This document shows, in pieces, positions 183-36,446 of a stretch of DNA of 64,000 nt (position 1 is its first letter; each line of letters opens with the position of its first letter). The position numbers and the translations under genes are program-made. Origin of the DNA: a phage; NCBI GenBank assembly GCA_033580375.1, contig GCA_033580375.1_4527.1, one strand, 5' to 3'. Below the pieces are notes generated by a model. It was given only the letters and a program-made list of their open reading frames with translations, searched no databases and was not told the DNA's origin.

Positions 183-524
183 TTAAAAGAATTTAAATTT
201 TTTCTTGGTTCGTTCATTAAAAGCTTGTTGTACCTGCATTGTAACACATTTTTCAACATGCGGCGCAAGTTCTGCTTTTCTGTCCTGGTCAAGAACTGCA
301 AAGTCCATTACGATTTTACCATCAACCCAGTCTAGTTTTGTAATATAGACTATATGATGAGAACCGTCTTCAAGTGTAATCAGAATCTCTTGAATGACGT
401 TTTCCATTGCTGAACGGATAATTTTAAGAGATTCATTAAACACTCGTTCTTTGCGAATGTCTTCCCCTTCCGAAGAAGGGGATTCATCAACGATTTCTAG
501 ATTTAAATCATCGAGATTATTCAT
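183..524 (-). CDS. 40: gp40-like head vertex assembly chaperone (113 aa)
   Basis: ORF track 183..545 begins with TTG; first ATG at 522-524 overlaps uvsX stop in an ATGAATAA arrangement; position between uvsX and 41 as in T4. Confidence 0.55.
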   Translation of the reverse strand: MNNLDDLNLEIVDESPSSEGEDIRKERVFNESLKIIRSAMENVIQEILITLEDGSHHIVYITKLDWVDGKIVMDFAVLDQDRKAELAPHVEKCVTMQVQQAFNERTKKKFKFF

Positions 525-1689
525 CGAAATCTTCCATTTCGTCAAGGTCGTTTTCTATATCTGCTGCAGATGGAGCATCAGAAGTTTTAACCGGAACTTT
601 AGTTGTTGCTTTGCAATTAATAAGGTCGTTAACTGCGTCATCAACTTCTTTAATAGAAGAGATAGCGCCTAGTTTATATTTAGTTTCAATTGCATCTCGG
701 AAAGGTTTGTGTTTAAACAACGGTCCCCAGAATTCTACGCAATCAGTAGCTTTAGCACGCCATGATTTCTCTTCACGAATCATTTCACCTGTTTCTTCGT
801 CAAGGAATTCACGAGCATACCAACCGGCTTTAGGTTTAACCACAAAACCAATTTCAGTTGCCATTTCTAACAAGCCACTGAATGGGTCAATACCGCCATC
901 AAAATTAACCGTGATCGGGAAAGTAGATTTCTCTTTAACAGTACGAGATTTTTCTGCTTTCAACGTGAAGTCATAACCGGTCAATTCTGTACCTTCTTTA
1001 ACCTGACGTTTAGAGATAAAGAATACAGTGTTAGCAGAGTAAAGAATACCTGTACCACCACCCATAATCTCTTTAGGATATAGTCCACCGATTTCCATTG
1101 CTGTATGGTTAATTGCAACACATGGAATATCTTTAATAGTCAGATACGGGGTCACAATACGGAACAGAGATTTAAGTGCCTTAGCACGAGACATATCACC
1201 TACGACTTTCTCGTTCAATGCATCTTCGGTTTCTTTCTTAGATGCAGTATTACCGATTGAATCGATAAAGATAATAACTTTATCACCGCGTTCAATAGCG
1301 TCAAGCTGATTAGTCATATCAACTTTAAGTTGTTCGACGGACTGAATTGGTGTGTGAACTACACGGTCTAAATCAACACCCATTGAACGAAAATAAGATT
1401 CTGAAGCACCGAATTCTGAATCATAGAACAAACAAATTGCATCTTTATATTTCTTCATATACGCTGCAACCATGGTCAGCCCAAACAATGTTTTAAAATG
1501 TTTAGAAGGTGCAGCAAAAATAGTCAAGCCTGATTGCAATCCTGCATTCAGAGCACCACCTAGTGCAATATTCAACATCGGAATACGAGTAGGGACTTCA
1601 TCGCGATTATTAAACAGCTTAGACTTAGTCAAGTCTGCAGTCATTTTAGAAGTAGAAGCTTTAATCAGACGAGATTTTAAATCAGACAT
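517..1689 (-). CDS. uvsX: UvsX recombinase (RecA-like), 390 aa
   Basis: MSDLKSRLIKASTSK... with RecA-fold motifs and strong resemblance to the T4 UvsX sequence as I recall it; ATG verified at 1687-1689. Confidence 0.95.
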   Translation of the reverse strand: MSDLKSRLIKASTSKMTADLTKSKLFNNRDEVPTRIPMLNIALGGALNAGLQSGLTIFAAPSKHFKTLFGLTMVAAYMKKYKDAICLFYDSEFGASESYFRSMGVDLDRVVHTPIQSVEQLKVDMTNQLDAIERGDKVIIFIDSIGNTASKKETEDALNEKVVGDMSRAKALKSLFRIVTPYLTIKDIPCVAINHTAMEIGGLYPKEIMGGGTGILYSANTVFFISKRQVKEGTELTGYDFTLKAEKSRTVKEKSTFPITVNFDGGIDPFSGLLEMATEIGFVVKPKAGWYAREFLDEETGEMIREEKSWRAKATDCVEFWGPLFKHKPFRDAIETKYKLGAISSIKEVDDAVNDLINCKATTKVPVKTSDAPSAADIENDLDEMEDFDE

Positions 1690-1757
1690 TGTATTTTTCC
1701 ATAGGCATCATTATATTTTACTCATGTTTAAAAGATAAGATGATTATATACTAATGA

Positions 1758-1766
1758 TTATACAGC
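1758..1766 (-). promoter_or_regulatory. Candidate extended -10 promoter (TGcTGTATAAT, minus sense) upstream of uvsX
   Basis: Minus strand reads ...AAATGCTGTATAATCAT... about 75 nt upstream of the uvsX ATG; no clear -35 seen. Confidence 0.35.
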
Positions 1767-1788
1767 ATTTAAAACTTTAAACAGGCTC

Positions 1789-2337
1789 TTAACGAGCCCA
1801 TTTGATGATTTCTGTAATCAAATCATTACGTTCGCTTGCATTAAATCCTATAACTTTGTTAGCACCATCATGATTAAGTAATTGATACGTTTGGATTTTG
1901 TTATGAATTGCAAACTCTTCAAAATGTGAAATGACTGTATTAAAACTGAGTGAAGACAAAGTAATAAGATCGTCTTCAAAACTTTCAGTCATTTCGTTAC
2001 GTGTTAAAATAATTGTGAACACGTCATGGTTTTGGCAAAGACGAACATAATCCTGCTCATAAACATCAAGAACCGAGTCCGCATCTTGTCGAATACGTCC
2101 ATAAACCCAGTTACTAATATATCCACGGTCTAACAGATAAATCTTAGTAGGGTCTAAATAATTCAACATCGTTTCGAAACAACCAACTTCATTTCGAGAC
2201 TTAACATCGAAACGTCCATCAACTGTTCGTTTAGGGAAATCAATCTTTACATATCTTTCACTAATTTCCATTATGACATTAATGAAAGTTGTTTTGCCGG
2301 CATTATCTGGGCCATCTACTAAAATAATTTTAGCCAT
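1789..2337 (-). CDS. P-loop nucleotide kinase-like protein (thymidylate-kinase-like), 182 aa
   Basis: Walker A GPDNAGKTT near N-terminus and LLDRGYISNWVYG (DRY-type motif of dNMP kinases); ATG at 2335-2337 with GAGGAA SD; occupies the locus where T4 has beta-gt. Confidence 0.6.
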   Translation of the reverse strand: MAKIILVDGPDNAGKTTFINVIMEISERYVKIDFPKRTVDGRFDVKSRNEVGCFETMLNYLDPTKIYLLDRGYISNWVYGRIRQDADSVLDVYEQDYVRLCQNHDVFTIILTRNEMTESFEDDLITLSSLSFNTVISHFEEFAIHNKIQTYQLLNHDGANKVIGFNASERNDLITEIIKWAR

Positions 2338-2338
2338 T

Positions 2339-3235
2339 TTATTCCTCGATTACGACATCTTCGTATTTAGGTATATTATACGGCGAAGAAATTAAAGCAT
2401 TAAAGTAGATGAACTCACCAAGACCTGGATGGAATACTTCTTCAGGATTTTCGAAATATTGAATCTTCGGACGTCCTTTAAGAATTTGATAGTACTCAGT
2501 TTTAGTTGGTTTAAAAATTCGAATCAGCGCTTCTTCAGGATACTTATTTCTGTCGAAGCTATTATTTGGATCGGTTATATAAAGTGGTTGTCCTAATTGA
2601 ATTGCACATTCAACCACTTGTTCAAAATGATAACACGGATCACTAATTCGAAATGGATGAAAAATACCATCTACATGAATAGGAGCCAAATCACCTACAA
2701 GACGCTGCATGATGGAAGGACGTATAACTTTCTGCGTTACGATAATCTTATTATCTGCGCCAGCGTTAACCAGCACTTCTTTTTGACGTTCATTCAACAC
2801 AGTAGTTTGAAGTGAACGATTAACCGACAACATGTCGGTTTTTAAGAATTCGTCAATATAAAAACGTGGTTTATTAGGGTCTGCAGTGATATTGAAATTG
2901 AATTCTACATCAAAAGCGCCGTCATATCCAGTGATATCTGTGATTAGAAAATCACAATCATAATAAGCAATTAATGAATCAACAACAAATTCATTTTCAG
3001 ACCAGAAATATTTACGAGTGTTATACGCGTTATCTTTATACCATAATGGAACAAACTTAAATTCTGGGAAAAGACGTTCACATTCTTTAATATCAGATGC
3101 ATTACGTGGATATGTAATCACATCACCCGGATTAGCACGGTGCAAATGAAGTTGGAAGTTGCCATCCTTAAGGATAGCATACTGTCCAGTTTCATAAGAC
3201 CGCATACTCAAGATTGGTACGCGGAAAATAGCCAT
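2339..3235 (-). CDS. Hypothetical protein, 298 aa (beta-gt locus; candidate DNA sugar transferase, unproven)
   Basis: Long intact ORF, ATG 3233-3235 overlaps gene 42 stop (TAATG); no family recognised by eye. Confidence 0.6.
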   Translation of the reverse strand: MAIFRVPILSMRSYETGQYAILKDGNFQLHLHRANPGDVITYPRNASDIKECERLFPEFKFVPLWYKDNAYNTRKYFWSENEFVVDSLIAYYDCDFLITDITGYDGAFDVEFNFNITADPNKPRFYIDEFLKTDMLSVNRSLQTTVLNERQKEVLVNAGADNKIIVTQKVIRPSIMQRLVGDLAPIHVDGIFHPFRISDPCYHFEQVVECAIQLGQPLYITDPNNSFDRNKYPEEALIRIFKPTKTEYYQILKGRPKIQYFENPEEVFHPGLGEFIYFNALISSPYNIPKYEDVVIEE

Positions 3236-3951
3236 TAGTCAAGGAATCCTTTAACATAATCAAAATCACGTTCAAACACATGGGCACTTACCATGGTATG
3301 AGTATAATCACCAACTTCTACACCGCATTCGTTAGCGATATAATGAAGTAATTTTCCTTGGAGATAAAAATCCAACTGCATAACAACAGCACAGTTCTGA
3401 GAACGCATATGACAGTGGGTATAAAGCTTACCATCACGAATATAATAAGTCACTGAGTCAGTACATGGATATTCAAGTGTTTCATCTGAATCAAGCAAAG
3501 CCTGATCAGAACTTTCTAGAATTTGGAACACAACTCTTCGAGAGTTAGGTTTTTCTTTAAGTTCTTTTAGAAGAGCTGGTAATTGAGCCGCAATGCGAGG
3601 ACCATAGAAAGTGTTGAAGTTTGCAGGCAAAGCATCTGATTTTGGTTTAGAAATAAATTTAGCGACATTAGGATATGCCTTAAACGCTTCTTCTGCATCA
3701 GTACCACCGGAAATCATAAACTTCCAGAAGTCTTCGGCATATTCATAAGATATGCGATTAATACGTGGGTCGGTCATTTTGAATGATGATGGAGTGTCAA
3801 CAACTACTGTCATAGACCCAATTTCATTACAACGTCCAATACGAGAATCAGTTACGAATTCTGGGTTTTCTAAAATTTCACGATTGACTGCTTTAAATGC
3901 GGTTTGAAAATCTGCGGCTTTGATATATTTCATTGTGTTATGTTTTCCCAT
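3235..3951 (-). CDS. 42: dCMP hydroxymethylase (thymidylate synthase family), 238 aa
   Basis: Catalytic-Cys region CTDSVTYYIRDGKLYTHCHMRSQN aligns with the ThyA/dCMP-hydroxymethylase active-site block (T4 gp42-like); ATG 3949-3951 with GAGGT SD; synteny. Confidence 0.8.
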   Translation of the reverse strand: MGKHNTMKYIKAADFQTAFKAVNREILENPEFVTDSRIGRCNEIGSMTVVVDTPSSFKMTDPRINRISYEYAEDFWKFMISGGTDAEEAFKAYPNVAKFISKPKSDALPANFNTFYGPRIAAQLPALLKELKEKPNSRRVVFQILESSDQALLDSDETLEYPCTDSVTYYIRDGKLYTHCHMRSQNCAVVMQLDFYLQGKLLHYIANECGVEVGDYTHTMVSAHVFERDFDYVKGFLD

Positions 3952-4132
3952 GTTTACCTCAATACAATTTATTATATACTCAATTCGTAAAGCTTATTTG
4001 AATTTCTTGGCAATGTTGATATAACGTAAAGCTTCAGCATCGATACTTCCAAGAACACTATGAAGAAATGCATCAGCTTAGTATTCTAATTGAACAGGTT
4101 CTTTAATCACTTTAGCCGCTTTGGTTTCAAAC

Positions 4133-4152
4133 AGGCCCATAAGGGCCTTTTT
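4133..4152. terminator. GC hairpin AGGCCC-ataa-GGGCCT followed by TTTT on the plus side
   Basis: Perfect 6-bp stem read directly; T-run only on the plus strand, so function for the minus-strand operon is uncertain. Confidence 0.35.
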
Positions 4153-4229
4153 AAGAATTTGTTCGTTAGTGTTCAGTTTCATAGTCAAAATCTCTTCATT
4201 AAGTTTATAATTAAAAGCTTTTCTAGAAA

Positions 4230-5390
4230 TCATTCCGGGTACCTCAAAGCGTCATCAGAGTTAGTTATATCAATAATAGATATGGAGTTTTCTGCTAACC
4301 CGTTTTTAGATAATTGACGTTTGTAATATCTTTCACAATATGTACACGTTGACCCACAGATTTCATTAGCACAATCGAAATCCGGATGTCTGAACCACCT
4401 TTTTTCTAAAAAGCCATCTAACAAAGAGGTTTCAATATTTACTGTATGTGAAAACTCAGTCTCATTTTCAAGAGTGAAAATAGTCTCTAAAGGCTTCCAC
4501 AGTTCTAACAAATTACCTTCAAACTTTTCAGAAGCGTATGCTTCAAGAACTTTCAAAATGTAGTCTGTGCTACCTGTACGTCCTGAAACTTTGAATTGAG
4601 TGATACCAATATCATTATAAAGTTTCAAATCTTGAGGACGAACAAAACGAGTTCTCAGCCAGTTAAATGGGTCTGTATCACGAGCTTTAATGCAGTGTTG
4701 CATTGGATATCCATTTAAGGATTTAGCATCATCAGCGGTAACATCAGTACTATGGAAAATATAGCAAGAGTCACGATAACTACAATGTGTTGTATACCCT
4801 TTACCAGCATTAGAACAGAACTCATTTACAAGAACTTCAAATATTATATTGTTCTTATTGCAAAACTCTGCTGCACGCTTCAGGAAAGAAACTGAACGGT
4901 TCTTATGAATTCCACAGCAGACCTTTTTGATATTATATTGGTCATGCAAGTATTTGATTTGAGTTACGGCATCAACATGTAGAATTGTTGAAACTTCAAT
5001 CTCAATATCTTTATTGACTTCACGAACAATTTCCATAACAACAGGGTTAGCGATAGTAATACGCCATACACCTATTGACCAAAGATACTGAACATAATCC
5101 TGAATAGCTTTCTTCTTCCACTCAACTAGTTCTCTTTTTGAACCAGGATTTATCGTGTTGAGTGTATAGTTAAAGCAAATACCTAATTCGTTACAACGTT
5201 TAACATAGTCTTCTAACATTTTTTTGTCAACGTCAGGAAGCCTAAAATCAGGTCTGGCTGCTACAAAAGCCATTTCTCTTGTAGAGCCATATACTTCGTT
5301 TATCAAGCTATTAGGATAAGTTTTATTGAGCTCTACGATTTTATCAAGAAGAGCTAAATCAAAATTCGTTCCGATTTTAAAAGTATTCAT
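4230..5390 (-). CDS. Hypothetical protein, 386 aa; possible TIM-barrel / peptidase-U32-like, Cys-rich C-terminus
   Basis: Intact ORF, ATG 5388-5390; N-terminal pattern EVYGS...ARPDF...CNELGICFNYTLNTIN and Cys cluster NEFCSNAGKGYTTHCSYRDSC weakly resemble U32-family proteins; C-terminal CANEICGSTCTYC; first gene of the inserted block. Confidence 0.55.
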   Translation of the reverse strand: MNTFKIGTNFDLALLDKIVELNKTYPNSLINEVYGSTREMAFVAARPDFRLPDVDKKMLEDYVKRCNELGICFNYTLNTINPGSKRELVEWKKKAIQDYVQYLWSIGVWRITIANPVVMEIVREVNKDIEIEVSTILHVDAVTQIKYLHDQYNIKKVCCGIHKNRSVSFLKRAAEFCNKNNIIFEVLVNEFCSNAGKGYTTHCSYRDSCYIFHSTDVTADDAKSLNGYPMQHCIKARDTDPFNWLRTRFVRPQDLKLYNDIGITQFKVSGRTGSTDYILKVLEAYASEKFEGNLLELWKPLETIFTLENETEFSHTVNIETSLLDGFLEKRWFRHPDFDCANEICGSTCTYCERYYKRQLSKNGLAENSISIIDITNSDDALRYPE

Positions 5391-5448: not shown

Positions 5449-5835
5449 TTATAGATTCGGTTTATACGATTTAAATGTTTCGAATTCGCCTTTATTCATA
5501 AGAGCTTTGAATTCGTCAGGACGCATAGCTTTGTCGTCGATAATCCAATCATATACTGGTTTATGTGTTAGCAAATTATGGTACTTCAAACCAATGTTTT
5601 CCAAGTTCTGAATCAGACTTGGGAGAATGTCAATTGCTATACGACCAGGACCTACTGACTTCATACCACGAGCAGTGTAAAGCGTTATGGTATGCCCTGC
5701 ATCATACAGGGCATTAATGGCGGTCACCATTTCGACGTCTGGTTTGAAGTTCGCGTAATCACGATTGTTATTCCATTCCGTGATGCAATCATCGACATCA
5801 AAACAAAGATTAAGCATGTTTTCTACACGGCGCAT
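5449..5835 (-). CDS. HAD-superfamily phosphatase, about 128 aa
   Basis: HAD motif I LCFDVDDCIT near N-terminus; ATG at 5833-5835 overlaps upstream stop (TAATG); ORF track start 5850 is an alternative. Confidence 0.7.
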   Translation of the reverse strand: MRRVENMLNLCFDVDDCITEWNNNRDYANFKPDVEMVTAINALYDAGHTITLYTARGMKSVGPGRIAIDILPSLIQNLENIGLKYHNLLTHKPVYDWIIDDKAMRPDEFKALMNKGEFETFKSYKPNL

Positions 5836-7520
5836 TAGATTCGTTCCCATTGATGAGTGATATCGCCACCGATTGGACGATAGGAAACACCAGTTTCTTT
5901 ATCAGTTAGTACCCATTTACCAGGATTTTTTGTAATCAGAGTAGCCGTTACAGGTTCTGCTACGTCATAACTAATAGAGCCGTCTTGAAGTACACGACCC
6001 ATGTTACGTAATTGCTTAGTCAGAAGTTCCATACCTTTATAATATGCGGCTACCGCTTTAAGTGGATTATTCTTGAAATAACCACCTAATGCAATCCAGA
6101 TAATCGCCACTGCCAAATGATGATACTCGTTAAACGAACTCATCTTTCCATATTTGTAAACTAATGGATTGATGTTAATAGTCACATTACAAGTTGTTTC
6201 GTCAATAGTAAACTGTCCCCAGGTCGGATTAGCATTGAATTCATCATAACCTGAAACAGCATAAAGCACTTTAGCTTCATCGTACAATTTTGGCCCGTAA
6301 ATCTTGGTTTCACCAAAATATCCACGAGGGTCGATAAACTTGACTTCGCCGTTATCAGTAATCATAGTATTACTGAAGTTCGGGTCACCGTGAATAACAG
6401 AGTACTGTCCCTGAGAACGGTTATGATAACGAATAAGGTGTTCTAAAGCTTGTTTCAACATTGGCTTCAGACGTCCAATCTTAGTGTAGTTCACATGTGT
6501 GATTTTACCAAATGAATCAATCAATGGTTGAATGCTTTCACAACGATCAATAACTTTCGTATAGAATTCTTTAGTGAAATCACGACGAACAGTTTCAGGA
6601 CTTACAAAATAAATGTCTGTGCTGAATTTCAGTGCATCTAAAATTGCATCAACAATTTGTGGACGAGCAAGACTTGATTTGGATTTAATATATTCAAATG
6701 CTGGCTTACCTTTAATGCGTTCCATTTCAAAGTTATTTTCATTAACAGAAACTAACTGAGGAACTGAATCTGATTTTACTTTCAAATACCATGAAATCTC
6801 ATCTTTTTGAAGAGCTCGTCCCTGTTCTGTTAATGCGAATTTAGTTACAGTTTCTTCACCAATTTCAACTGCATTAAAACTACGATTAAGTTCACGAACT
6901 TCATGAGCCTTTTCAAGTTTAGGCATATCACCTAAATCAATTAGATTCATAAGCTCTGATTTATTGAATGCACTGCCGTAAAGGAATTCTACAAAATCAC
7001 GTCCTTTACAGTATTCGTGAATTTCCTCGTCAGTAGAACCCATGTAGAATTCCCAGTCTTTGAACTGATAAATTCCTACAACATTACCGCCTGTTGAACC
7101 TACGTTAGTGATATTTTCACCATCGAAATTATATCGACATTCATCACCCTTAACATAGATTGCGTTAACATTCCAAGACCATGAACCAAAATCTGGAATA
7201 ATATCACACCAGTTAACAACTACGTTATGGCCGTCTAAATCTTTATGTAATTTAGCAAGAGCATAAGCAGAACCATACGCTTCATCAACTGTACGAATAG
7301 TCACATTGAACCCTTCTTGCTCACAATAAGCTCGAACAGTTTCAGCAAATTTTGAATGAACTACTACAATAATTTCATCTGCACCAAGGTCAGAATAAAT
7401 TGTATACAAATTGCTCAGAATAGTGTCTTGTTTATAGTTCACAAGAACTTTTGGAATATGGTGAGTAATTGGATATAAACGAGTTGCCAGTCCAGCACCA
7501 AGAATAACAGCTTTTTTCAT
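5835..7520 (-). CDS. Bifunctional sugar-1-phosphate nucleotidyltransferase (N-term) / APH-like sugar kinase (C-term), 561 aa
   Basis: N-terminus MKKAVILGAGLATRLYPIT...PKVLV is a classic NDP-sugar pyrophosphorylase signature; C-terminal HGDPNFSNTMITDNGEVKFIDPRGYFG is an HxDxxxxN catalytic loop plus D-x-G of APH/choline-kinase-like kinases; ATG 7518-7520 with GAGGA SD. Confidence 0.8.
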   Translation of the reverse strand: MKKAVILGAGLATRLYPITHHIPKVLVNYKQDTILSNLYTIYSDLGADEIIVVVHSKFAETVRAYCEQEGFNVTIRTVDEAYGSAYALAKLHKDLDGHNVVVNWCDIIPDFGSWSWNVNAIYVKGDECRYNFDGENITNVGSTGGNVVGIYQFKDWEFYMGSTDEEIHEYCKGRDFVEFLYGSAFNKSELMNLIDLGDMPKLEKAHEVRELNRSFNAVEIGEETVTKFALTEQGRALQKDEISWYLKVKSDSVPQLVSVNENNFEMERIKGKPAFEYIKSKSSLARPQIVDAILDALKFSTDIYFVSPETVRRDFTKEFYTKVIDRCESIQPLIDSFGKITHVNYTKIGRLKPMLKQALEHLIRYHNRSQGQYSVIHGDPNFSNTMITDNGEVKFIDPRGYFGETKIYGPKLYDEAKVLYAVSGYDEFNANPTWGQFTIDETTCNVTININPLVYKYGKMSSFNEYHHLAVAIIWIALGGYFKNNPLKAVAAYYKGMELLTKQLRNMGRVLQDGSISYDVAEPVTATLITKNPGKWVLTDKETGVSYRPIGGDITHQWERI

Positions 7521-7548
7521 GTTGAAGTCCTCATTGGTAAGTAGGAGT

Positions 7549-7573
7549 ATTGTACACTATTCTAGTTAAAGCA
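7549..7573 (-). promoter_or_regulatory. Candidate MotA-dependent middle promoter (TGCTTTA box, 12 bp, TACAAT) upstream of the NTase/kinase gene
   Basis: Minus strand reads aTGCTTTAactagaatagtgTACAATactcc...; MotA-box consensus and spacing from established T4 knowledge. Confidence 0.4.
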
Positions 7574-7705
7574 TTCATACTTTGCTTGTAGTCCAATCAT
7601 AATCCATCCAATTACAAGTGTTGGAATCATTACTGGAGCCGTTAAGCTCCAGTAGATAGTCATGACAAGCATCAATAGTAAAAGTCCTATTGTTATTGCT
7701 TTCAT
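7562..7705 (-). CDS. Small membrane protein, 47 aa (not in ORF track)
   Basis: Hand translation MKAITIGLLLLMLVMTIYWSLTAPVMIPTLVIGWIMIGLQAKYECFN; ATG overlaps upstream stop as ATGA (translational coupling); single predicted TM helix. Confidence 0.45.
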   Translation of the reverse strand: MKAITIGLLLLMLVMTIYWSLTAPVMIPTLVIGWIMIGLQAKYECFN

Positions 7706-8337
7706 TGCTCGCCTCGTAACATGGCACCTAGAGCACCGCCAGGGTGGAACTTAAGGAAATCATTAGAGGTAAATCCACGTTCAGACGAAAGGTTGATAGC
7801 AAACGTATCGATAAGCGCTAACAACAATGTAGTGGACATGGTCGGAGCTAAAGAGTTCTCGTCAACTTCTACCGCGATACCGGTACAGAACGTATAATCA
7901 AAAAGAGCTTCGTATTCTTGCGGAATGTCAGGGTTACAATGTAACAGAATCTGTTTAACCTGAGGACGAATCATACGAAGATGTTTAGCAACACCTATCA
8001 TTTCTTCAGTCTTACCAGAACGACTGATGTGAACTAATACATCATTAGGTGCAATAAATCCTGCGTCGCCATGAGAATAATGCCCAGTGTTCAAATACAT
8101 GCTAGGAATACCGAGTGAAGCAAATGTCTCAGAAGCTTTAGTTGCAATATTAGCATTCTTACCAACACCTGTAATAATTACACGACTTTCATAATTACTC
8201 AGTCCAGGGCGTCGAAGAGTTTCAAGAATAGCATTATAACGAGCAGGGTTTTGACTAATTACTTTGGCCATAGCGGCCAAAGAAGAAGCTTGTTTTATGA
8301 TTGCGTCAATAGCGATAGTAATAGGAGTAGTTTTCAT
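7702..8337 (-). CDS. SIS-domain sugar-phosphate isomerase, arabinose-5-phosphate isomerase (KdsD/KpsF)-like, 211 aa
   Basis: GVGKNANIATKASETFASLGIPSMYL...HGDAGFIAPNDVLVHISRSGKTEE and FLKFHPGGALG closely resemble the KdsD/GutQ SIS domain; no CBS pair; ATG 8335-8337. Confidence 0.8.
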   Translation of the reverse strand: MKTTPITIAIDAIIKQASSLAAMAKVISQNPARYNAILETLRRPGLSNYESRVIITGVGKNANIATKASETFASLGIPSMYLNTGHYSHGDAGFIAPNDVLVHISRSGKTEEMIGVAKHLRMIRPQVKQILLHCNPDIPQEYEALFDYTFCTGIAVEVDENSLAPTMSTTLLLALIDTFAINLSSERGFTSNDFLKFHPGGALGAMLRGEQ

Positions 8338-8377
8338 ATTTCTCTCATTTAATTAGTTTACCGTCCTTGGCATTATA

Positions 8378-11089
8378 TCAAAAATCGAACATATCGAATA
8401 GAGATGCTTTCTTCTCGTAATCGAGTTTCGCTGCTGATGTGAATCCTTCAAGTGGTTTAATAAATGTCTTCTCAAGGAGAACAGTGTAGTCCATCCAATG
8501 AAGTACATCATCTTTGATTAAATCAGTGATTTCAGTACCAGAAGGCCATGCGATACATTTATCACCGAACGGGTTTCCTTCACGTAAAGGCAGAACATAT
8601 ACTTTTTCACCTTCTACAACTTGTGGTGCATCGATATTACCTTTGATAGCCCGGTTATACGTCAGAATTCCACGAATATGGAACGGACATTTAGGACCAG
8701 GGAATCCACCTACATCATATTTAGCAATGTTATTCGCAGAAGATACCGACGCGATGCTAATATAATTCAATTGACGGAATTCTTTTTCAAACTCTTTAAA
8801 ATATTCTTGTAATGATTCTTCACCTTCTTGAAGCATACGACGAATACATTCTTTAAGAGCTTTCTGTACCGCTTTAGGAGTTGAAGATTTCTGTGTTTCG
8901 AGACCCATGATTTTGAGTTTAGGCTCAGCGTAACGAGTACCTTCCATATCCCACACGTTTAATGCATAACGTTTCTTACCAGTCCAGAATCCGCCAATAC
9001 CTTTAGAACCGAGCGGAGGACCAGCGATAGCTTCTCGGTCCATGAACATTAAGTGTTGTTTATTGTTCATGTATTCACACATTTCACGGAAACCTCTATC
9101 AATAGCCGGTTCCATACGTTCACGAGCGAACTTATCTAAGAAGTCTACCCAATGGTTGGTATCACGGAATTTAGATTCACCAACCTTATCAATAATTTTA
9201 TCTGCAGATACATAAATGGAGTCTGTATCACCATAAAGAACGAAAGCTTCACCTTCTGTACCACAAACTTCGTTCAGATATTCATTAACTTTACGTTCAA
9301 TCCACTGTAAAGCCATTTGCCCGAATGTTGTGATTGCAGTAGCATTACGCAAATCGTAATAACGGAACCAAACGTTTCCAAGTGCACCATAAAGCGAGTT
9401 GATGAGTAATTTACGGTTAATCTGTGCAGTCATACCTGCAACTTCAGTACGTTGAGCTCTAAACAACATTTCATTAAGAGATTTAGCAGACAACTTTTTA
9501 ATCTTTTCTTTAATCTCGTCAGTGAAGTCGAAACGATAATCAACATCTAATGGTTCATCAACAGAAAGATTAGGATTATGCAATGCCTCTTTAATTATTT
9601 CACCATTACGTTGAGCTGCAAGCATGTAACCTTTATGTTCTTTACGCTGATTAAAGACCTTAGTGATTTCGGTTGGAACTACACCATCACGGTCTTTATA
9701 ATACATCATGCCATTAGGAGAGCAACTGTACACATCTGAAGGACGTTCAGCAACAGCGTTAATATAATCATGCAATGGAGCTACTTTAAACGTTCCTGCT
9801 ATTGTTTCTGGGCTAATATTCACTTGGCGAATAATACTTGGATACAGAGATGTAAGGTCGAAACTCATTACATATTTGTATCGATTTGGAATAGGTTCCT
9901 TAACAAAAGCGCCAGGATAAGGTTGAACCGGGTGAGAACGACCTTGTGGAATCACCTTGTTCTGCTCTTTAAGGCTATTAAAAATAATAGCATCCCATGT
10001 TTTAATTGGGCTAAACACAGATTGAATCTGTATCTTAGCATAATAACCCATGTCCAAACTCAAGTTGATGAACTGACGCTTAGCATCAATTTGCAATACA
10101 CGATACACGTCGATAATGTTATAAGAAATATATCGTTGGTGATTGCTTTCACGAAGCTTAGAAATAGGGCCTTCATATTTCAGTTTACCAACGTTCAATT
10201 CAAATTCTGAAATGTAATCCAGAGAATACGACGGTTGATTGGTAAAAGAGAATTTTTTGTAAAGGTCAATGTAATCAAGAACAGAGATACCGAACAATGT
10301 AATGATTTCACGAGAACCATACATGTTTTCGATAACTTTAACACGAGTTTTACGATGTGGTGATAAACGTTTCGCAGTAGATTCGCCAAAAATATTCTTG
10401 ATTCGGTTATACACATATGGAATATCAAATGACTCAACGTTCCATCCAGTCAAAATGACAGGAGTTTTCTGTTGCCAGAAGTTGAGATATTCCATCAACA
10501 ATTCTTTTTCGTTATCGAACGGCATATAAATGATTTTATCAATAATTTCGGATGGAACTTCATCACCACCTTGTTCTTGAAGCTTAGCCGCAATTTCGAT
10601 AGACCATTCTTCCACATTACCATATGGAGAATTCAATAGATCAAATACGTAGAACCTGTCGTCAATTGAGTCATAATGGGTGATAGCATCAATCGGATGT
10701 TTTGCTTGTGACGGCTCAGGGAACCCATCCGGAGATGTTACTTCGATGTCGAAGTTAGCCACACGAATTTTTGTATGGTCGTATTTGATTTCATAGTTAT
10801 AAGTGTCAGACAAATACGCTAATTTGAAATCGTCCATGCCAAGTGCTTCAAGTCCGATATCTTCCATGCGTTTAATCCATTGGGAGGCATCACGCATATT
10901 AGCGAACAACTTACGAGTACATGGCTTACCGTAGATATCGAAATATTTCGTAGCCTGACTTTCTGGACAATGAGCAAACAGTGATGGTTTATATTCTACT
11001 TCACGAGTACGTTCACGGCCGTTAGAATCGATGTAACGTTCAAAAATTGAATCACCGATCTGTTCAACCGTTAAGTAAAATTCTTTCAT
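8378..11089 (-). CDS. 43: DNA polymerase (family B), 903 aa
   Basis: MKEFYLTVEQIGDSIFERYIDSNGRERTREVEYKPSLFAHCPESQ... matches my recollection of RB69 gp43; exonuclease (FDIE) and polymerase (YGDTDS) motifs present. Confidence 0.98.
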   Translation of the reverse strand: MKEFYLTVEQIGDSIFERYIDSNGRERTREVEYKPSLFAHCPESQATKYFDIYGKPCTRKLFANMRDASQWIKRMEDIGLEALGMDDFKLAYLSDTYNYEIKYDHTKIRVANFDIEVTSPDGFPEPSQAKHPIDAITHYDSIDDRFYVFDLLNSPYGNVEEWSIEIAAKLQEQGGDEVPSEIIDKIIYMPFDNEKELLMEYLNFWQQKTPVILTGWNVESFDIPYVYNRIKNIFGESTAKRLSPHRKTRVKVIENMYGSREIITLFGISVLDYIDLYKKFSFTNQPSYSLDYISEFELNVGKLKYEGPISKLRESNHQRYISYNIIDVYRVLQIDAKRQFINLSLDMGYYAKIQIQSVFSPIKTWDAIIFNSLKEQNKVIPQGRSHPVQPYPGAFVKEPIPNRYKYVMSFDLTSLYPSIIRQVNISPETIAGTFKVAPLHDYINAVAERPSDVYSCSPNGMMYYKDRDGVVPTEITKVFNQRKEHKGYMLAAQRNGEIIKEALHNPNLSVDEPLDVDYRFDFTDEIKEKIKKLSAKSLNEMLFRAQRTEVAGMTAQINRKLLINSLYGALGNVWFRYYDLRNATAITTFGQMALQWIERKVNEYLNEVCGTEGEAFVLYGDTDSIYVSADKIIDKVGESKFRDTNHWVDFLDKFARERMEPAIDRGFREMCEYMNNKQHLMFMDREAIAGPPLGSKGIGGFWTGKKRYALNVWDMEGTRYAEPKLKIMGLETQKSSTPKAVQKALKECIRRMLQEGEESLQEYFKEFEKEFRQLNYISIASVSSANNIAKYDVGGFPGPKCPFHIRGILTYNRAIKGNIDAPQVVEGEKVYVLPLREGNPFGDKCIAWPSGTEITDLIKDDVLHWMDYTVLLEKTFIKPLEGFTSAAKLDYEKKASLFDMFDF

Positions 11090-11148
11090 TTAATTTCCTT
11101 TAGACGAGTTATTGTCTTTTGTTTGTTGATGAACTTATTATACTCCAA

Positions 11149-11166
11149 ATGGGACCGAAGTCCCAT
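11149..11166 (-). promoter_or_regulatory. Stable hairpin (GGGAC-UUCG-GUCCC on mRNA) in regA-43 intergenic region; candidate gp43 translational operator element or regA terminator
   Basis: Perfect 7-bp stem with UUCG tetraloop read from sequence; T4 gp43 autoregulates via an operator hairpin (established), but this hairpin is about 60 nt upstream of the ATG so the assignment is tentative. Confidence 0.3.
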
Positions 11167-11170
11167 TGCT

Positions 11171-11539
11171 TTAATTACCAATTGTATATTTTGCTTTCAA
11201 AGTCCAGTCATCTTTCTGTTTAAAAGAGATAACACGGAAGTTATTAGTCAGGCTAAATAGATCTTCACGAGCAGAGTCTTCAATAACAATTAATCCCCAG
11301 TCTTCAAGCAACTGAGCAATCGAATCACGTCGCTGATAGTCTTCACCATCAATATCAACCTGACGTCCGTCCATACGCAGCATTTCTTTAAAGTGGACGA
11401 TGTAATATTTACCTTGCTTTTGGAGGATATGACAGGACTGATAAAGGATTTTATCCTTGTTATTAGCGATGCCCATACGGGTCAAAGTCTCTTTGACTTT
11501 CAGAAAATCTTCAGGGTTCTTCAATTTAATTTCAATCAT
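11171..11539 (-). CDS. regA: RegA translational repressor, 122 aa
   Basis: MIEIKLKNPEDFLKVKETLTRMGIANNKDKILYQSCHILQK... resembles T4 RegA; start taken at MIEI (ORF track start 11548 adds 3 codons); synteny 62-regA-43. Confidence 0.85.
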   Translation of the reverse strand: MIEIKLKNPEDFLKVKETLTRMGIANNKDKILYQSCHILQKQGKYYIVHFKEMLRMDGRQVDIDGEDYQRRDSIAQLLEDWGLIVIEDSAREDLFSLTNNFRVISFKQKDDWTLKAKYTIGN

Positions 11540-16479: not shown

Positions 16480-16714
16480 CCTCGATACATGCTTCAGCCA
16501 TTTTAAGAATAGAGCCAGGAGTATCGTTGTCCATTATATTAAAGCTAAATTCAATAGCCCAGTCGGTACAGACATGAACGGCTTTAACTTCATTGCCTTC
16601 AACGCGTAATGGCTCAATCCAATACTTGATGGTGTTCTCGAATCCATCATCATCTTTAACGTCTATTTCAGCTTCAAGTCCGAGCCCAGCATTGTTAAAT
16701 TCATCTAAAGTCAT
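16457..16714 (-). CDS. Hypothetical acidic protein, 85 aa (46.2 position)
   Basis: ORF in operon. Confidence 0.55.
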   Translation of the reverse strand: MTLDEFNNAGLGLEAEIDVKDDDGFENTIKYWIEPLRVEGNEVKAVHVCTDWAIEFSFNIMDNDTPGSILKMAEACIEDAYNDED

Positions 16715-17730
16715 TGTGTTGCCTCAATATAAAGTTCGTTGGAATATTTGACCAGCGCTTCTCTGTCTTCGTCTGAGATATCTGGAATCGCGTCAATATA
16801 TTCTTTAATGATATCTTGAAGTGATTTAATCTCGATTTCCTGGTCGTCATCAGATTCAACACTGTTATCAACTTTAGAAACCATACGAAGAGAGTGAACT
16901 ACTTTTTCAAGTTCAGATTCAAACTTAGTCAACTCTGAATCAATTTCTGATACTATAACACGTACGGCTAGATTAGTATAATCAGAATAATTGATTTTGC
17001 CTTTAAACGGATAAGTGATTCGTCGATGCCATGTTGTTTCATTAGGAATAAATTCCATACGTTCAACATCAGTGTCAAATACCCAGAATCCGCGCGGGTC
17101 GTTCTCGTCACCTGCAGTAAGGGTCCATGGTGTCCCAATATATTTGACGTTAGCAGCTTCAGAGATTGTGTGGAAGTGGCCAGACCAGACTTGTTTATAG
17201 GTCTTTAAGAAATCAGGTTCAAGCCCATGAGACTTCATTCCTTTATAGAAATAAAAGCCATTCAGTTCCCAGTGCCCAACACAATATGCCGCAGAAGAAG
17301 TCTTGATGTGCTCTAAGATTTCACCTGTATTTTCTTCACACATCCACGGAACGATATCAATCAGACATCCGTCAAAATCTACAGTAGTTGGATGTTCGTA
17401 AATAGTAAAGTTTTCAAATTGAGTTAACAATTCAGAAACAGTGTTAGGTGTTATTGTATTCTTAAACGCCATGTCATGGTTTCCTATCGTGACATGAACG
17501 TGAATGCCTGCTTTAGAAATCATATCAACGATTTCACGATTGAATTCCATTGTACGATGTGTAATTGCTTTACGGACGTCAAACCAATCACCGTACTGAA
17601 TCCAAGTTTTAATCCCGTGTTTCTTAGAGTATTCAATTGCTTGACGAATACCATCACGTTGAATATCTTGAACCCATGGGTCATCTTGTTTGACTCCGAT
17701 ATGGAAGTCGCCTAAGTGCAAAATTTTCAT
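16711..17730 (-). CDS. 47: Recombination nuclease subunit gp47 (Mre11/SbcD-like phosphoesterase), 339 aa
   Basis: Calcineurin-like motifs (LHLGDFH, GDWFD, GNHD, GHWE, GHFH); synteny. Confidence 0.92.
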   Translation of the reverse strand: MKILHLGDFHIGVKQDDPWVQDIQRDGIRQAIEYSKKHGIKTWIQYGDWFDVRKAITHRTMEFNREIVDMISKAGIHVHVTIGNHDMAFKNTITPNTVSELLTQFENFTIYEHPTTVDFDGCLIDIVPWMCEENTGEILEHIKTSSAAYCVGHWELNGFYFYKGMKSHGLEPDFLKTYKQVWSGHFHTISEAANVKYIGTPWTLTAGDENDPRGFWVFDTDVERMEFIPNETTWHRRITYPFKGKINYSDYTNLAVRVIVSEIDSELTKFESELEKVVHSLRMVSKVDNSVESDDDQEIEIKSLQDIIKEYIDAIPDISDEDREALVKYSNELYIEATQ

Positions 17731-17802: not shown

Positions 17803-17976
17803 CTATCCACATAGTACACCGTACAGAGGCTCATTTGAACTTTTAAATCGAATGGGCTTGTGCGTAATAGTTCCTTCGGCTTTAGCTTTATCATAAGACT
17901 CTTTAAAACGTCTCATTCTTTCTGCTTTGCCTTTACGGATTTTATCGAAATTTTCAGAGGTCAGGTCGTTCGTCAT
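17803..17976 (-). CDS. Hypothetical small basic protein, 57 aa (not in ORF track)
   Basis: Hand translation MTNDLTSENFDKIRKGKAERMRRFKESYDKAKAEG...; GAGGTG SD; sits where T4 has alpha-gt. Confidence 0.35.
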   Translation of the reverse strand: MTNDLTSENFDKIRKGKAERMRRFKESYDKAKAEGTITHKPIRFKSSNEPLYGVLCG

Positions 17977-18015
17977 GCATAAGCACCTCTCAGAAAATGC
18001 CTAAATCGATTTCTC

Positions 18016-18222
18016 TCATCGTTTCCACCATTTCTTAACTTGAAATGAATCGACCCACACGAGTTGTTTTGGGTCTGCCTTTACAATAGGCGGACAAATT
18101 TCTGTAATAGAACCGTCGTGATATTCCTTTTCAGAAATTTTAACACAAAGAGGACCACCCAATTTAATGGTGAACCCTGCGTTCAGCTTCAGACGTTTAA
18201 ATTTTGTTTGAACTAGCGCCAT
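18016..18222 (-). CDS. Hypothetical protein, about 68 aa
   Basis: ORF track 18016..18237 starts with TTG; first ATG at 18220-18222. Confidence 0.45.
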   Translation of the reverse strand: MALVQTKFKRLKLNAGFTIKLGGPLCVKISEKEYHDGSITEICPPIVKADPKQLVWVDSFQVKKWWKR

Positions 18223-18520
18223 TAATGATGTCCTCAATAGCCTGACGAGTAGTAATCCACTGGATTTTAATTAACTTGTCATTATATGGTTGTCGTAGAA
18301 TATCCCGAGATTTCTTAATAGCATATTCGTAAGCTTCGAAGTTGTTTTGAATTGCTGCTTCTTGAGCATGTGCATAAAGACGGTTTAGTTCAAAACGATT
18401 CTTTTTAAGAATCTTTTCAGATTTTTTACGTGCTTCAGCTTCATTTTTCTTTTGGATTTCTTGTAGCATTTTAGCCACTGCATCTTCTGCTTCTTTATTT
18501 TCAATAATCTCGGTAGTCAT
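18197..18520 (-). CDS. Hypothetical coiled-coil protein, 107 aa
   Basis: ATG verified 18518-18520. Confidence 0.55.
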   Translation of the reverse strand: MTTEIIENKEAEDAVAKMLQEIQKKNEAEARKKSEKILKKNRFELNRLYAHAQEAAIQNNFEAYEYAIKKSRDILRQPYNDKLIKIQWITTRQAIEDIINGASSNKI

Positions 18521-18521
18521 A

Positions 18522-18737
18522 TTATCTCATTAAATTAAAATAAAAACGTCCGTCCTCTTCAATACAGAACTCGTACTCAACTGGAGTCCCATTTATCGAA
18601 AATGACACGTCATGTGGGTTCAAAGGGTCGATGTCAAAATTAATTTTAAATTCTCGACCCAACAGTTTTACCAAATAAGGGATTGCTTCGTCAAAAGGTT
18701 CTTCTAAGTAGTTAGAGATATCAATTGTCATCCTCAT
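18522..18737 (-). CDS. Hypothetical protein, about 72 aa (start uncertain)
   Basis: ORF track start 18815 would overlap gp55 by 95 nt; internal ATGs at 18737 and 18731. Confidence 0.4.
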
Positions 18738-19278
18738 ATAAAAAATCCAAACTAGGTGAATCGCTAACAACTTCCTTCTTTTCAGCCCCAGGAGCTTTAT
18801 AAGCGGATTCTTCATAATGCGTCATTTTATCGTAGATGTCTTGAATAAACGTTTCATCTACCAACGCTACCATATCATCGTCATGACTGTCGTAGACGTT
18901 ATGAACGAAGTAACTATATTTCTTTGCAACTTCCTTACGTTCTTTTTTGATACGTTGGACAAAAGCATTAAAACAAGCTCGAGTTATGTATGCATGTGGG
19001 TTATTGTACTTAGTTTCGTCGAAATTATGAAGTCCCTTAATAGAGGCTTCAATCCCATCTGCAATCATCTCCTGCTTCCAAGACTGGGTATATCCTGAAA
19101 AGTTGAAACGTTTGGACAGGCCTTCGGCGATAAGCATAATTGCTAAACCGATGGTATCATTCTGACGAATAATTTTGTTTGGGTCTTTATTATTTAAGAG
19201 CTCCTTTTTCCACTCGATTATAGCGGCGAGAAGCTCTTTATTATTCACATAGTTATTTTTAGGTTTTTGTTCAGTCAT
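18721..19278 (-). CDS. 55: Late sigma factor gp55, 185 aa
   Basis: [25 protein letters not shown]...[39 protein letters not shown] matches T4 gp55 as recalled; ATG 19276-19278 with AGAGGT SD (ORF track start 19296 is TTG). Confidence 0.9.
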
Positions 19279-19433
19279 AAGTACCTCTTGGCTCAATTCA
19301 TAGGTCTATTATATCATAATATTTAGAGACCTATCTTAAAGCACGAGATACTATCAAAGATACGTAACTTTCATAAAGTTGACGACTTAAAATTCACCAA
19401 ACTTTTCTTCGGTTATAGCAATTCGAGATAGTT

Positions 19434-35432: not shown

Positions 35433-35645
35433 TTAATTTTGGCCAGTATTTATTTTTCGCCTTTGAACGGCCTTAACATCTGCGAGGTATTTTTCCAGCT
35501 TGCGCTTGCGTGTATAATCAGCTTTAGAACCAGTTTGACGGATATCCTCGTTTAAATGAGAAATAGAATGTCCTAATTCTCTTCGGATTTCATCCAATTG
35601 GGTTACAGTAAGATTACGAAGTTGTCTTTCGTTTAATTGCTGCAT
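35433..35645 (-). CDS. Hypothetical protein, 70 aa
   Basis: ORF. Confidence 0.5.
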
Positions 35646-35672
35646 ATATACCTCTTGGTTAGATATTAGTAT

Positions 35673-36254
35673 TTATAACAACCCTGTCAAATCATTCCAA
35701 TGCTTCCGGCATAATGACACATATCTATCGGTATCACCAATTTCAATTTGTCCACCGTCTGTAATTGGAAGTCCATCTTCCGTGACTCTAGCTACCATAG
35801 TGGCCTTTTTACCACAATGACAGACACCTTTAAGTTCAACAAGCTTGTCGGCAATAGCCATTAATGCTTGAGAACCTTCAAATAGATTACCTTTAAAATC
35901 TGTTCGTAGTCCATATGCCATTACTGGCACATTGTATACGTCAACAATACGACTAAGTTGATACACCTTTTCAGTAGTTAAGAACTGAGCTTCGTCAACA
36001 AATACACAGTGAATATCCTTTTGTGCTGCAGCCCATTTATAGAATTCAAAGATATCCATGTCTTTTGTAATTATATTGGCATCCTGACGAATACCAATAC
36101 GAGAGACTATTTCACCTTTTGAATCACGAGTATCAATATCCGGTTTAAGAACTAATACACCCATGCCACGTTCTTTATAGTTATGTGCGGCAGTAAGTAA
36201 TGAAGCAGACTTACCAGCGTTCATTGCTGCATAAGTAAAAATTAAACTCGCCAT
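35673..36254 (-). CDS. tk: Thymidine kinase, 193 aa
   Basis: P-loop MNAGKSASLL, C-terminal Zn-binding CHCG...LCRKHW. Confidence 0.92.
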   Translation of the reverse strand: MASLIFTYAAMNAGKSASLLTAAHNYKERGMGVLVLKPDIDTRDSKGEIVSRIGIRQDANIITKDMDIFEFYKWAAAQKDIHCVFVDEAQFLTTEKVYQLSRIVDVYNVPVMAYGLRTDFKGNLFEGSQALMAIADKLVELKGVCHCGKKATMVARVTEDGLPITDGGQIEIGDTDRYVSLCRKHWNDLTGLL

Positions 36255-36263
36255 AAGAGTCCC

Positions 36264-36446
36264 TTATAATGAATTCACATAGTCAATGAGTTCTTGTTCT
36301 TTCCTGTCAAATGATTCCAACAACGCTTGATATTCTTCATCTGTTAAAGGAGCATATTCATCGTACGCATTGGTGGCTGCTTGCTCATCCAATAGGTCAT
36401 GGATAAGTTCGAACAGTTTAGCTTTCTCTTCTTTAGTCAATTTCAT
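36264..36446 (-). CDS. Hypothetical acidic protein, 60 aa
   Basis: ORF. Confidence 0.45.
   Translation of the reverse strand: MKLTKEEKAKLFELIHDLLDEQAATNAYDEYAPLTDEEYQALLESFDRKEQELIDYVNSL

Follow-up and report, generated by a model that had tools for sequence, protein, structure and literature searches.

Introduction

The DNA of RB69 carries mono- and di-arabinosylated 5-hydroxycytosine, not arabinosyl-hydroxymethylcytosine (hmC) (Lee et al., NAR 2026, PMC13326640). The same study demonstrated experimentally that RB69 gp48 generates 5-hydroxy-dCMP (5hodCMP) using O2 and flavin, proposed D169N/N177D as the signature by which 5hodCMP synthases can be recognised, and found that an RB69 gp1-type dNMP kinase already phosphorylates 5hodCMP (PMC13326640). 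It applied the label ‘arabinosyltransferase 1’ to RB69 gp46:47, DLP3 gp79 and Thanatos TH1_063; no single DLP3 glycosyltransferase (GT) arabinosylated 5hoC-DNA with either UDP-Araf or UDP-Arap (data not shown in that study), and the authors could not decide between the mononucleotide and DNA as the acceptor of the first sugar. RB69p045 and RB69p047 had earlier been listed as presumed members of the pathway (PMC8056088), and a 2026 study of Mosigvirus NP described the same two-transferase layout (PMC13390438). As these three publications describe members of the pathway, the locus considered here was already known, as a prediction. Separately, TH1_063 was reported to form UDP-xylose from UTP and xylose-1-phosphate in vitro (Brandt et al., PMC12838424).

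Arabinosyl-5-hydroxycytosine shields phages from restriction enzymes, several CRISPR-Cas types and the defences specific to glucosyl-hmC, and the enzymes that synthesise it therefore matter for phage therapy and engineering. In the publications cited above, the least documented aspects are what the sequence-orphan transferase does and on which acceptor, and which substrate its partner kinase uses. Here, both genes are analysed in a stretch of phage DNA of 64,000 nucleotides, hereafter the window. They are the companion kinase and glycosyltransferase already described for the RB69-type arabinosyl-5-hydroxycytosine pathway, with functions that are predicted.

Results

The first 8 kb of the window matched approximately 150 Mosigvirus (RB69-like, T4-type) genomes over its full length at 97-98% nucleotide identity, including Shigella phage ESh27, phiC120, JK45 and APCEc01, and RB69 itself was 97.4% identical across positions 1700-4000. 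Every gene discussed is on the minus strand in the open reading frame (ORF) listing (see the table). A preliminary description of this DNA had placed a kinase and a 298-aa gene between uvsX and a gene ‘42’, with the 298-aa gene coupled to the latter, and the ORF coordinates agree with this arrangement. The TAA stop codon of ‘42’ and the ATG of the 298-aa gene share one base (TAATG, 3237-3233), and the TAA of the 298-aa gene is separated by one base from the ATG of the kinase gene (TAAAATG), with GAGGA upstream. These junctions make translational coupling plausible, as had been suggested for the pair involving ‘42’, and both the 182-aa and 298-aa ORFs are real genes. Promoter and terminator scans across 1500-4400 returned only background-level signals.

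Elsewhere in the cluster, the genes for the HAD-type phosphatase and the 561-aa protein overlap by 16 bases (5835-5850), a further sign of tight co-expression. The ORF049c homologue is truncated by the change of a Tyr codon (TAT/TAC) to TAA. The 561-aa protein is bifunctional and AfhE-like, and its role, the making of UDP-arabinofuranose, is assigned from PMC13326640.

Features of the window discussed in the text
Feature	Position	Strand	Basis or remark
uvsX	517-1689	-	ORF listing
182-aa thymidylate-kinase-fold P-loop NMP kinase, RB69 gp45 orthologue	1789-2337	-	P-loop 2313-2287, DRGY 2130-2119
298-aa compact GT-B glycosyltransferase, predicted first (base-proximal) arabinosyltransferase	2339-3235	-	Orthologue of RB69 ORF047c+046c, DLP3 gp79, Thanatos TH1_063
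238-aa ThyA-family 5-hydroxy-dCMP synthase, RB69 gp48 orthologue (‘gene 42’ of the preliminary description)	3235-3951	-	235/238 identity to PDB 9iqc/9ir2
RB69 ORF049c homologue, 51 aa	4078-4233	-	Truncated; 79 aa in RB69 and ESh27
386-aa U32 ‘peptidase’-family protein, RB69 gp50	4230-5390	-	PF01136, 7e-11
133-aa HAD-type phosphatase, RB69 gp51, AfhF-like	5449-5850	-	phrog_1238; TIGR01689 1.5e-13; role from PMC13326640
561-aa sugar-1-phosphate nucleotidyltransferase and APH-type kinase, RB69 gp52:53, AfhE-like	5835-7520	-	PF00483 and APH-like matches
211-aa arabinose-5-phosphate isomerase, KpsF/GutQ type, RB69 gp55	7702-8337	-	phrog_5670 2.6e-116; TIGR00393 9e-32
Gene 47	16711-17730
Terminator-like hairpin, then T9 run	17804-17785		Minus strand; directly downstream of a-gt.2 homologue
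Four small ORFs, T4 a-gt.2 to a-gt.5 homologues	17803-18815	-	Sequence comparison
Gene 55	18721-19296

The identity of the gene upstream determines the base on which any transferase would act. It had been taken for T4 gene 42, with hmC-DNA as the proposed test substrate, which its sequence contradicts: the product is identical at 235 of 238 positions to PDB 9iqc/9ir2/9iqu and only 25% identical to T4 gp42, no structure of which was among its top 60 PDB sequence matches. It reads RSQN...LD where ThyA has RSxD...FN and T4 gp42 has RSND...ND, such that Asn replaces D169 of E. coli ThyA and Asp replaces N177. This is the signature of the 5hodCMP synthases, and the protein has neither the Asp at D169 nor the close similarity to gp42 expected of a dCMP hydroxymethylase. 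The signature and the low identity to gp42 therefore identify 5-hydroxycytosine as the acceptor base, and a test of the transferase on hmC-DNA would mislead.

The 298-aa protein belongs to phrog_3891 (7e-154), a family of unknown function. No Pfam family matched it at E<=1, nor did any NCBIfam model; its 33 relatives gave zero matches to Pfam GT families, including Glycos_transf_1 (PF00534) and Glyco_trans_4, so that profile matching does not place it in CAZy GT4; and among PDB sequences phmmer retrieved none, while the family profile retrieved no GT. Sequence thus provides no link between this family and any GT family, and the fold comparison alone is informative. An AlphaFold2 model, built with the 33 relatives (pLDDT 93.9, pTM 0.88), has two Rossmann-like beta/alpha/beta domains with a cleft between them, as in GT-B enzymes, and the protein is predicted from this model to be a compact, GT4-like GT-B glycosyltransferase. 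The remote-homology search that the preliminary description had proposed ended in a GT-B fold from the model, with no GT match from Pfam, NCBIfam or the PDB.

The family is small and restricted to phages: clustering at 90% identity gave 58 groups, a set of 1.84 billion proteins contained 96 representatives at the 50% level, and homologues are present in 351 of 50,697 phage records. Across 33 diverse relatives 22 residues are invariant, and the conserved motifs are SMRSYETG (aa 10-17), FHPFRISD (aa 192-199), TDPN (aa 221-224) and FHPGLGE (aa 268-274). The alignment has R196, K245 and H269 in every relative and E262 in nearly every one, with a conserved FHPGLxE motif in the C-terminal half. Were the protein instead a GT-B-fold enzyme other than a transferase, such as one resembling UDP-sugar 2-epimerase or otherwise processing nucleotide sugars, or a non-catalytic partner of another GT, its closest structural matches might be expected to include such proteins; they are transferases throughout. 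The 22 invariant residues are polar or charged and lie in motif clusters typical of an active enzyme, and phages in which this is the only GT-B protein are still glycosylated, making that interpretation highly improbable.

Comparison with characterised enzymes separates the 298-aa protein from each of them. It shares with T4 beta-GT (GT63) its genomic slot, between uvsX and a ThyA homologue, and the general GT-B fold. Position might therefore suggest a highly diverged beta-glucosyltransferase orthologue acting on hmC, yet there is no sequence similarity to T4 beta-GT, and this candidate was rejected as extremely improbable once specific structural similarity was also found to be lacking. Nor is there sequence similarity to T4 alpha-GT (GT72). 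The logic is presumed to be that of the T4 enzymes, with a UDP-sugar donating to the C5 hydroxyl of a cytosine that has been modified. Bacterial retaining GT4 enzymes (sucrose-phosphate synthase 6kih, BshA, MshA and PimA) are 7-12% identical, and the phage protein is shorter by approximately 70-100 residues. The second arabinosyltransferase, RB69 gp3 or the HY126 glycosyltransferase (PDB 9iqz, 9ir0), is unrelated in sequence (hhalign probability 0.4%). At 366 aa, it can be recognised as a GT4 enzyme; its gene in RB69 lies between rIIA and gene 39, and tblastn found no homologue in the 64-kb window. The entry 9iqz, ‘phage HY126 glycosyltransferase’, was considered as a structure of the 298-aa protein and rejected, being the gp3 orthologue.

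The family is uniformly acidic, with a pI of about 5, compared to 9.05 for T4 beta-GT and 6.1 for T4 alpha-GT. As a proxy for DNA binding this is suggestive rather than decisive, as T4 alpha-GT is likewise acidic.

The protein is orthologous to the product of RB69 ORF047c and ORF046c, placing it in the arabinosyltransferase-1 family (phrog_3891). In the nucleotide alignment with RB69, 23 of 901 columns differ, and the sole frame-breaking difference is an additional T in RB69, indicating that this one base has split a single gene into ORF047c and ORF046c (RB69 6639-7539). The copy in the window is intact, and has one Gly codon fewer (ADNK rather than ADGNK), giving 298 aa compared to the 299 aa usual in most Mosigviruses. 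It adjoins, and is co-transcribed with, the D169N-type 5hodCMP synthase gene inside a UDP-arabinose gene cluster. The suggestion that this protein is a candidate DNA sugar transferase is thus partly supported, by its GT-B fold and its orthology to arabinosyltransferase 1, without the hmC frame in which it was made, since the neighbouring enzyme is a 5-hydroxy-dCMP synthase. The window adds no new component to the pathway; what it offers is the unbroken form of a gene whose RB69 reference version is frameshifted, together with independent evidence from the fold in agreement with the published prediction.

The orthology extends to Thanatos, in which TH1_062, TH1_063 and TH1_064 are 72, 48 and 43% identical to the window proteins. 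Of these, TH1_063 (Thanatos-1 35460-36362), at 48% identity, is the orthologue of the GT-B protein and the one reported as a UDP-xylose pyrophosphorylase. The family might accordingly be UDP-pentose pyrophosphorylases, that is sugar-1-phosphate uridylyltransferases making the donor rather than transferring it, as purified TH1_063 formed UDP-xylose in vitro by LC-MS (PMC12838424). This is very unlikely to be the function of the window protein: the fold is GT-B, not that of a nucleotidyltransferase; a canonical NTP-transferase domain is already present in the 561-aa protein, whose HY126 homologue AfhE was reported to make UDP-arabinose; the acceptors offered in the transfer assays with the Thanatos protein were the wrong ones, namely unmodified C, dCMP and dCTP; and mono-arabinosylated Thanatos would be left without any transferase. 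In view of the modelled GT-B fold, the pyrophosphorylase assignment of TH1_063 itself appears doubtful.

The kinase gene encodes the thymidylate-kinase-like P-loop protein previously noted, whose GPDNAGKTT (aa 9-17) and DRGY (aa 70-73) motifs do not vary across 19 relatives. It therefore has the P-loop (GxxxxGK[ST]) and DR[YHF] of thymidylate kinases (TMKs) on a TMK fold; its known counterpart is the ‘nucleotide kinase’ RB69 gp45 or DLP3 gp78. Unlike thymidylate kinases such as those of vaccinia (2v54) and T. thermophilus (5x7j), it scores well short of the dTMP-kinase thresholds of Pfam and TIGRFAM: the PF02223 match covered the P-loop alone and reached 12.5 bits, where the cutoff is 27, and TIGR00041 scored 18 bits against the 83 of the curated model.

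Homologues of the kinase occur in 344 phage records, with a taxon profile essentially that of the transferase. In a Marfavirus the kinase gene has been relocated, yet remains within the cluster; a 356-kb jumbo-phage contig has the order ThyA homologue, 200-aa ORF, GT, kinase; and the non-T4-like contig L003 has a block of MazG-like dNTP pyrophosphatase, kinase, GT, U32-like protein and second GT. RL38J1, a hexose user, retains the kinase-GT-ThyA trio. Comparative synteny, as the preliminary description had recommended, thus recovered the ThyA-GT-kinase grouping in Thanatos, the jumbo-phage contig and RL38J1. Since the kinase is kept in the hexose-using RL38J1 and in distant phage clusters, it tracks the 5-hydroxycytosine module and not the sugar, and this distribution makes dTMP unlikely as its real substrate. 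The acceptance of 5hodCMP by the gp1-type kinase, in turn, leaves the need for a TMK-like kinase unexplained.

The second glucosyltransferase position of T4 lies between genes 47 and 55, where the T4 order is 47, 47.1, a-gt, mobB, a-gt.2 to a-gt.5, 55. In the window this interval contains only ORFs of 57, 73, 107 and 97 aa and a terminator-like hairpin. Small ORFs and a terminator had been recognised here, correctly, but had been described as replacing alpha-gt; they are instead homologues of T4 a-gt.2 (74% identity), a-gt.3 (71%), a-gt.4 (58%) and a-gt.5 (47%). When the whole 64-kb window was searched by tblastn for homologues of T4 alpha-GT, beta-GT, mobB, 47.1 and segA, none was found. To judge by these comparisons, alpha-gt, mobB and 47.1 are merely absent, with no replacement in their stead. 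The retention of a-gt.2 to a-gt.5 homologues without them means that these genes are not functionally tied to alpha-glucosylation.

Discussion

The locus may be read as the core of an RB69-type arabinosyl-5-hydroxycytosine pathway, in which the 298-aa GT adds the first arabinose after replication and the kinase acts on 5hodCMP, a proposal that we consider to have an even chance of being correct in full. Firstly, the ThyA-like enzyme would convert dCMP to 5-hydroxy-dCMP, as shown for its RB69 and HY126 orthologues. Secondly, the 182-aa kinase would serve as the module’s own NMP kinase, most likely phosphorylating 5-hydroxy-dCMP to its diphosphate on the way into DNA. Thirdly, UDP-Araf would be provided by the isomerase, the kinase/uridylyltransferase and the phosphatase encoded nearby. 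Fourthly, the 298-aa GT would transfer the first, base-proximal alpha-D-arabinofuranose from UDP-Araf to the 5-OH of 5-hydroxycytosine, most likely on replicated DNA by analogy with T4 alpha- and beta-GT. Finally, the second arabinose would come from the RB69 gp3 orthologue, a GT4 enzyme that is unrelated to the 298-aa GT and has its gene outside the window. Several observations count against this scheme: the inactivity of single DLP3 GTs on 5hoC-DNA, the formation of UDP-xylose by TH1_063, the redundancy with the gp1-type kinase, the acidity of the GT family, and its lack of a sequence link to GTs.

Some of these observations would be explained by a pre-replicative order of events, in which the 298-aa GT arabinosylates 5-hydroxy-dCMP, the TMK-like kinase is dedicated to arabinosyl-5-hydroxy-dCMP, and the polymerase incorporates the glycosylated dNTP, with later sugars added on DNA. 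Conservation of the ThyA-GT-kinase block is both tight and broad, frequently with translational coupling; the MazG-like dNTP pyrophosphatase, kinase and GT are consecutive in L003; and the kinase would no longer appear redundant, as it does when 5hodCMP is its substrate. The DLP3 orthologue did not act on 5hoC-DNA, the authors of that work leaving the question of the acceptor explicitly open, and the GT is small and acidic, although T4 alpha-GT is acidic too. Such a route would be the first case of phage DNA being glycosylated at the nucleotide level, and would account for both the single-GT inactivity and the second NMP kinase that always travels with the GT. [quoted passage not shown] Furthermore, 5hodC enters DNA in vivo without any GT, and a 5hodCMP kinase intrinsic to the module explains the synteny more simply, particularly in RL38J1, for which the published Table 1 lists no gp1-type kinase. 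We therefore regard modification of the nucleotide before replication as rather unlikely, and return to transfer onto replicated DNA as the preferred reading.

The U32-family protein is also encoded inside the 5-hydroxycytosine cluster, and has a Cys-rich C-terminus (CANEICGSTCTYC). Its place beside the GT and kinase genes is conserved even among phages that are only remotely related (L003 9049-10125, Thanatos TH1_065 and Marfavirus). Characterised U32 members are O2-independent Fe-S hydroxylases: RlhA (ho5C2501 in 23S rRNA), TrhP (ho5U34 in tRNA) and UbiU/UbiV. Hence the protein in the window could be an anaerobic route to 5-hydroxycytosine, complementing the O2/FMN-dependent ThyA homologue; its only NCBIfam match, to UbiU, is weak (E 9e-4). 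The RB69 gp50-type protein was labelled a ‘sugar or heterocycle reductase’ by Lee et al. (PMC13326640), who mention neither U32 nor RlhA and TrhP.

Contig L003 is metagenomic, encodes a PolIII-alpha-type polymerase, and carries the most distant homologue of the GT. Positions 7073-11220 contain in a row the MazG-like protein, TMK-like kinase, GT1 homologue (26% identity), U32-like protein and a GT47-like GT. No ThyA homologue was found near this GT in the 17 kb searched, the contig’s first 9 kb lying outside that search, and there is a hint that base hydroxylation in this phage may be carried out by something other than a ThyA homologue.
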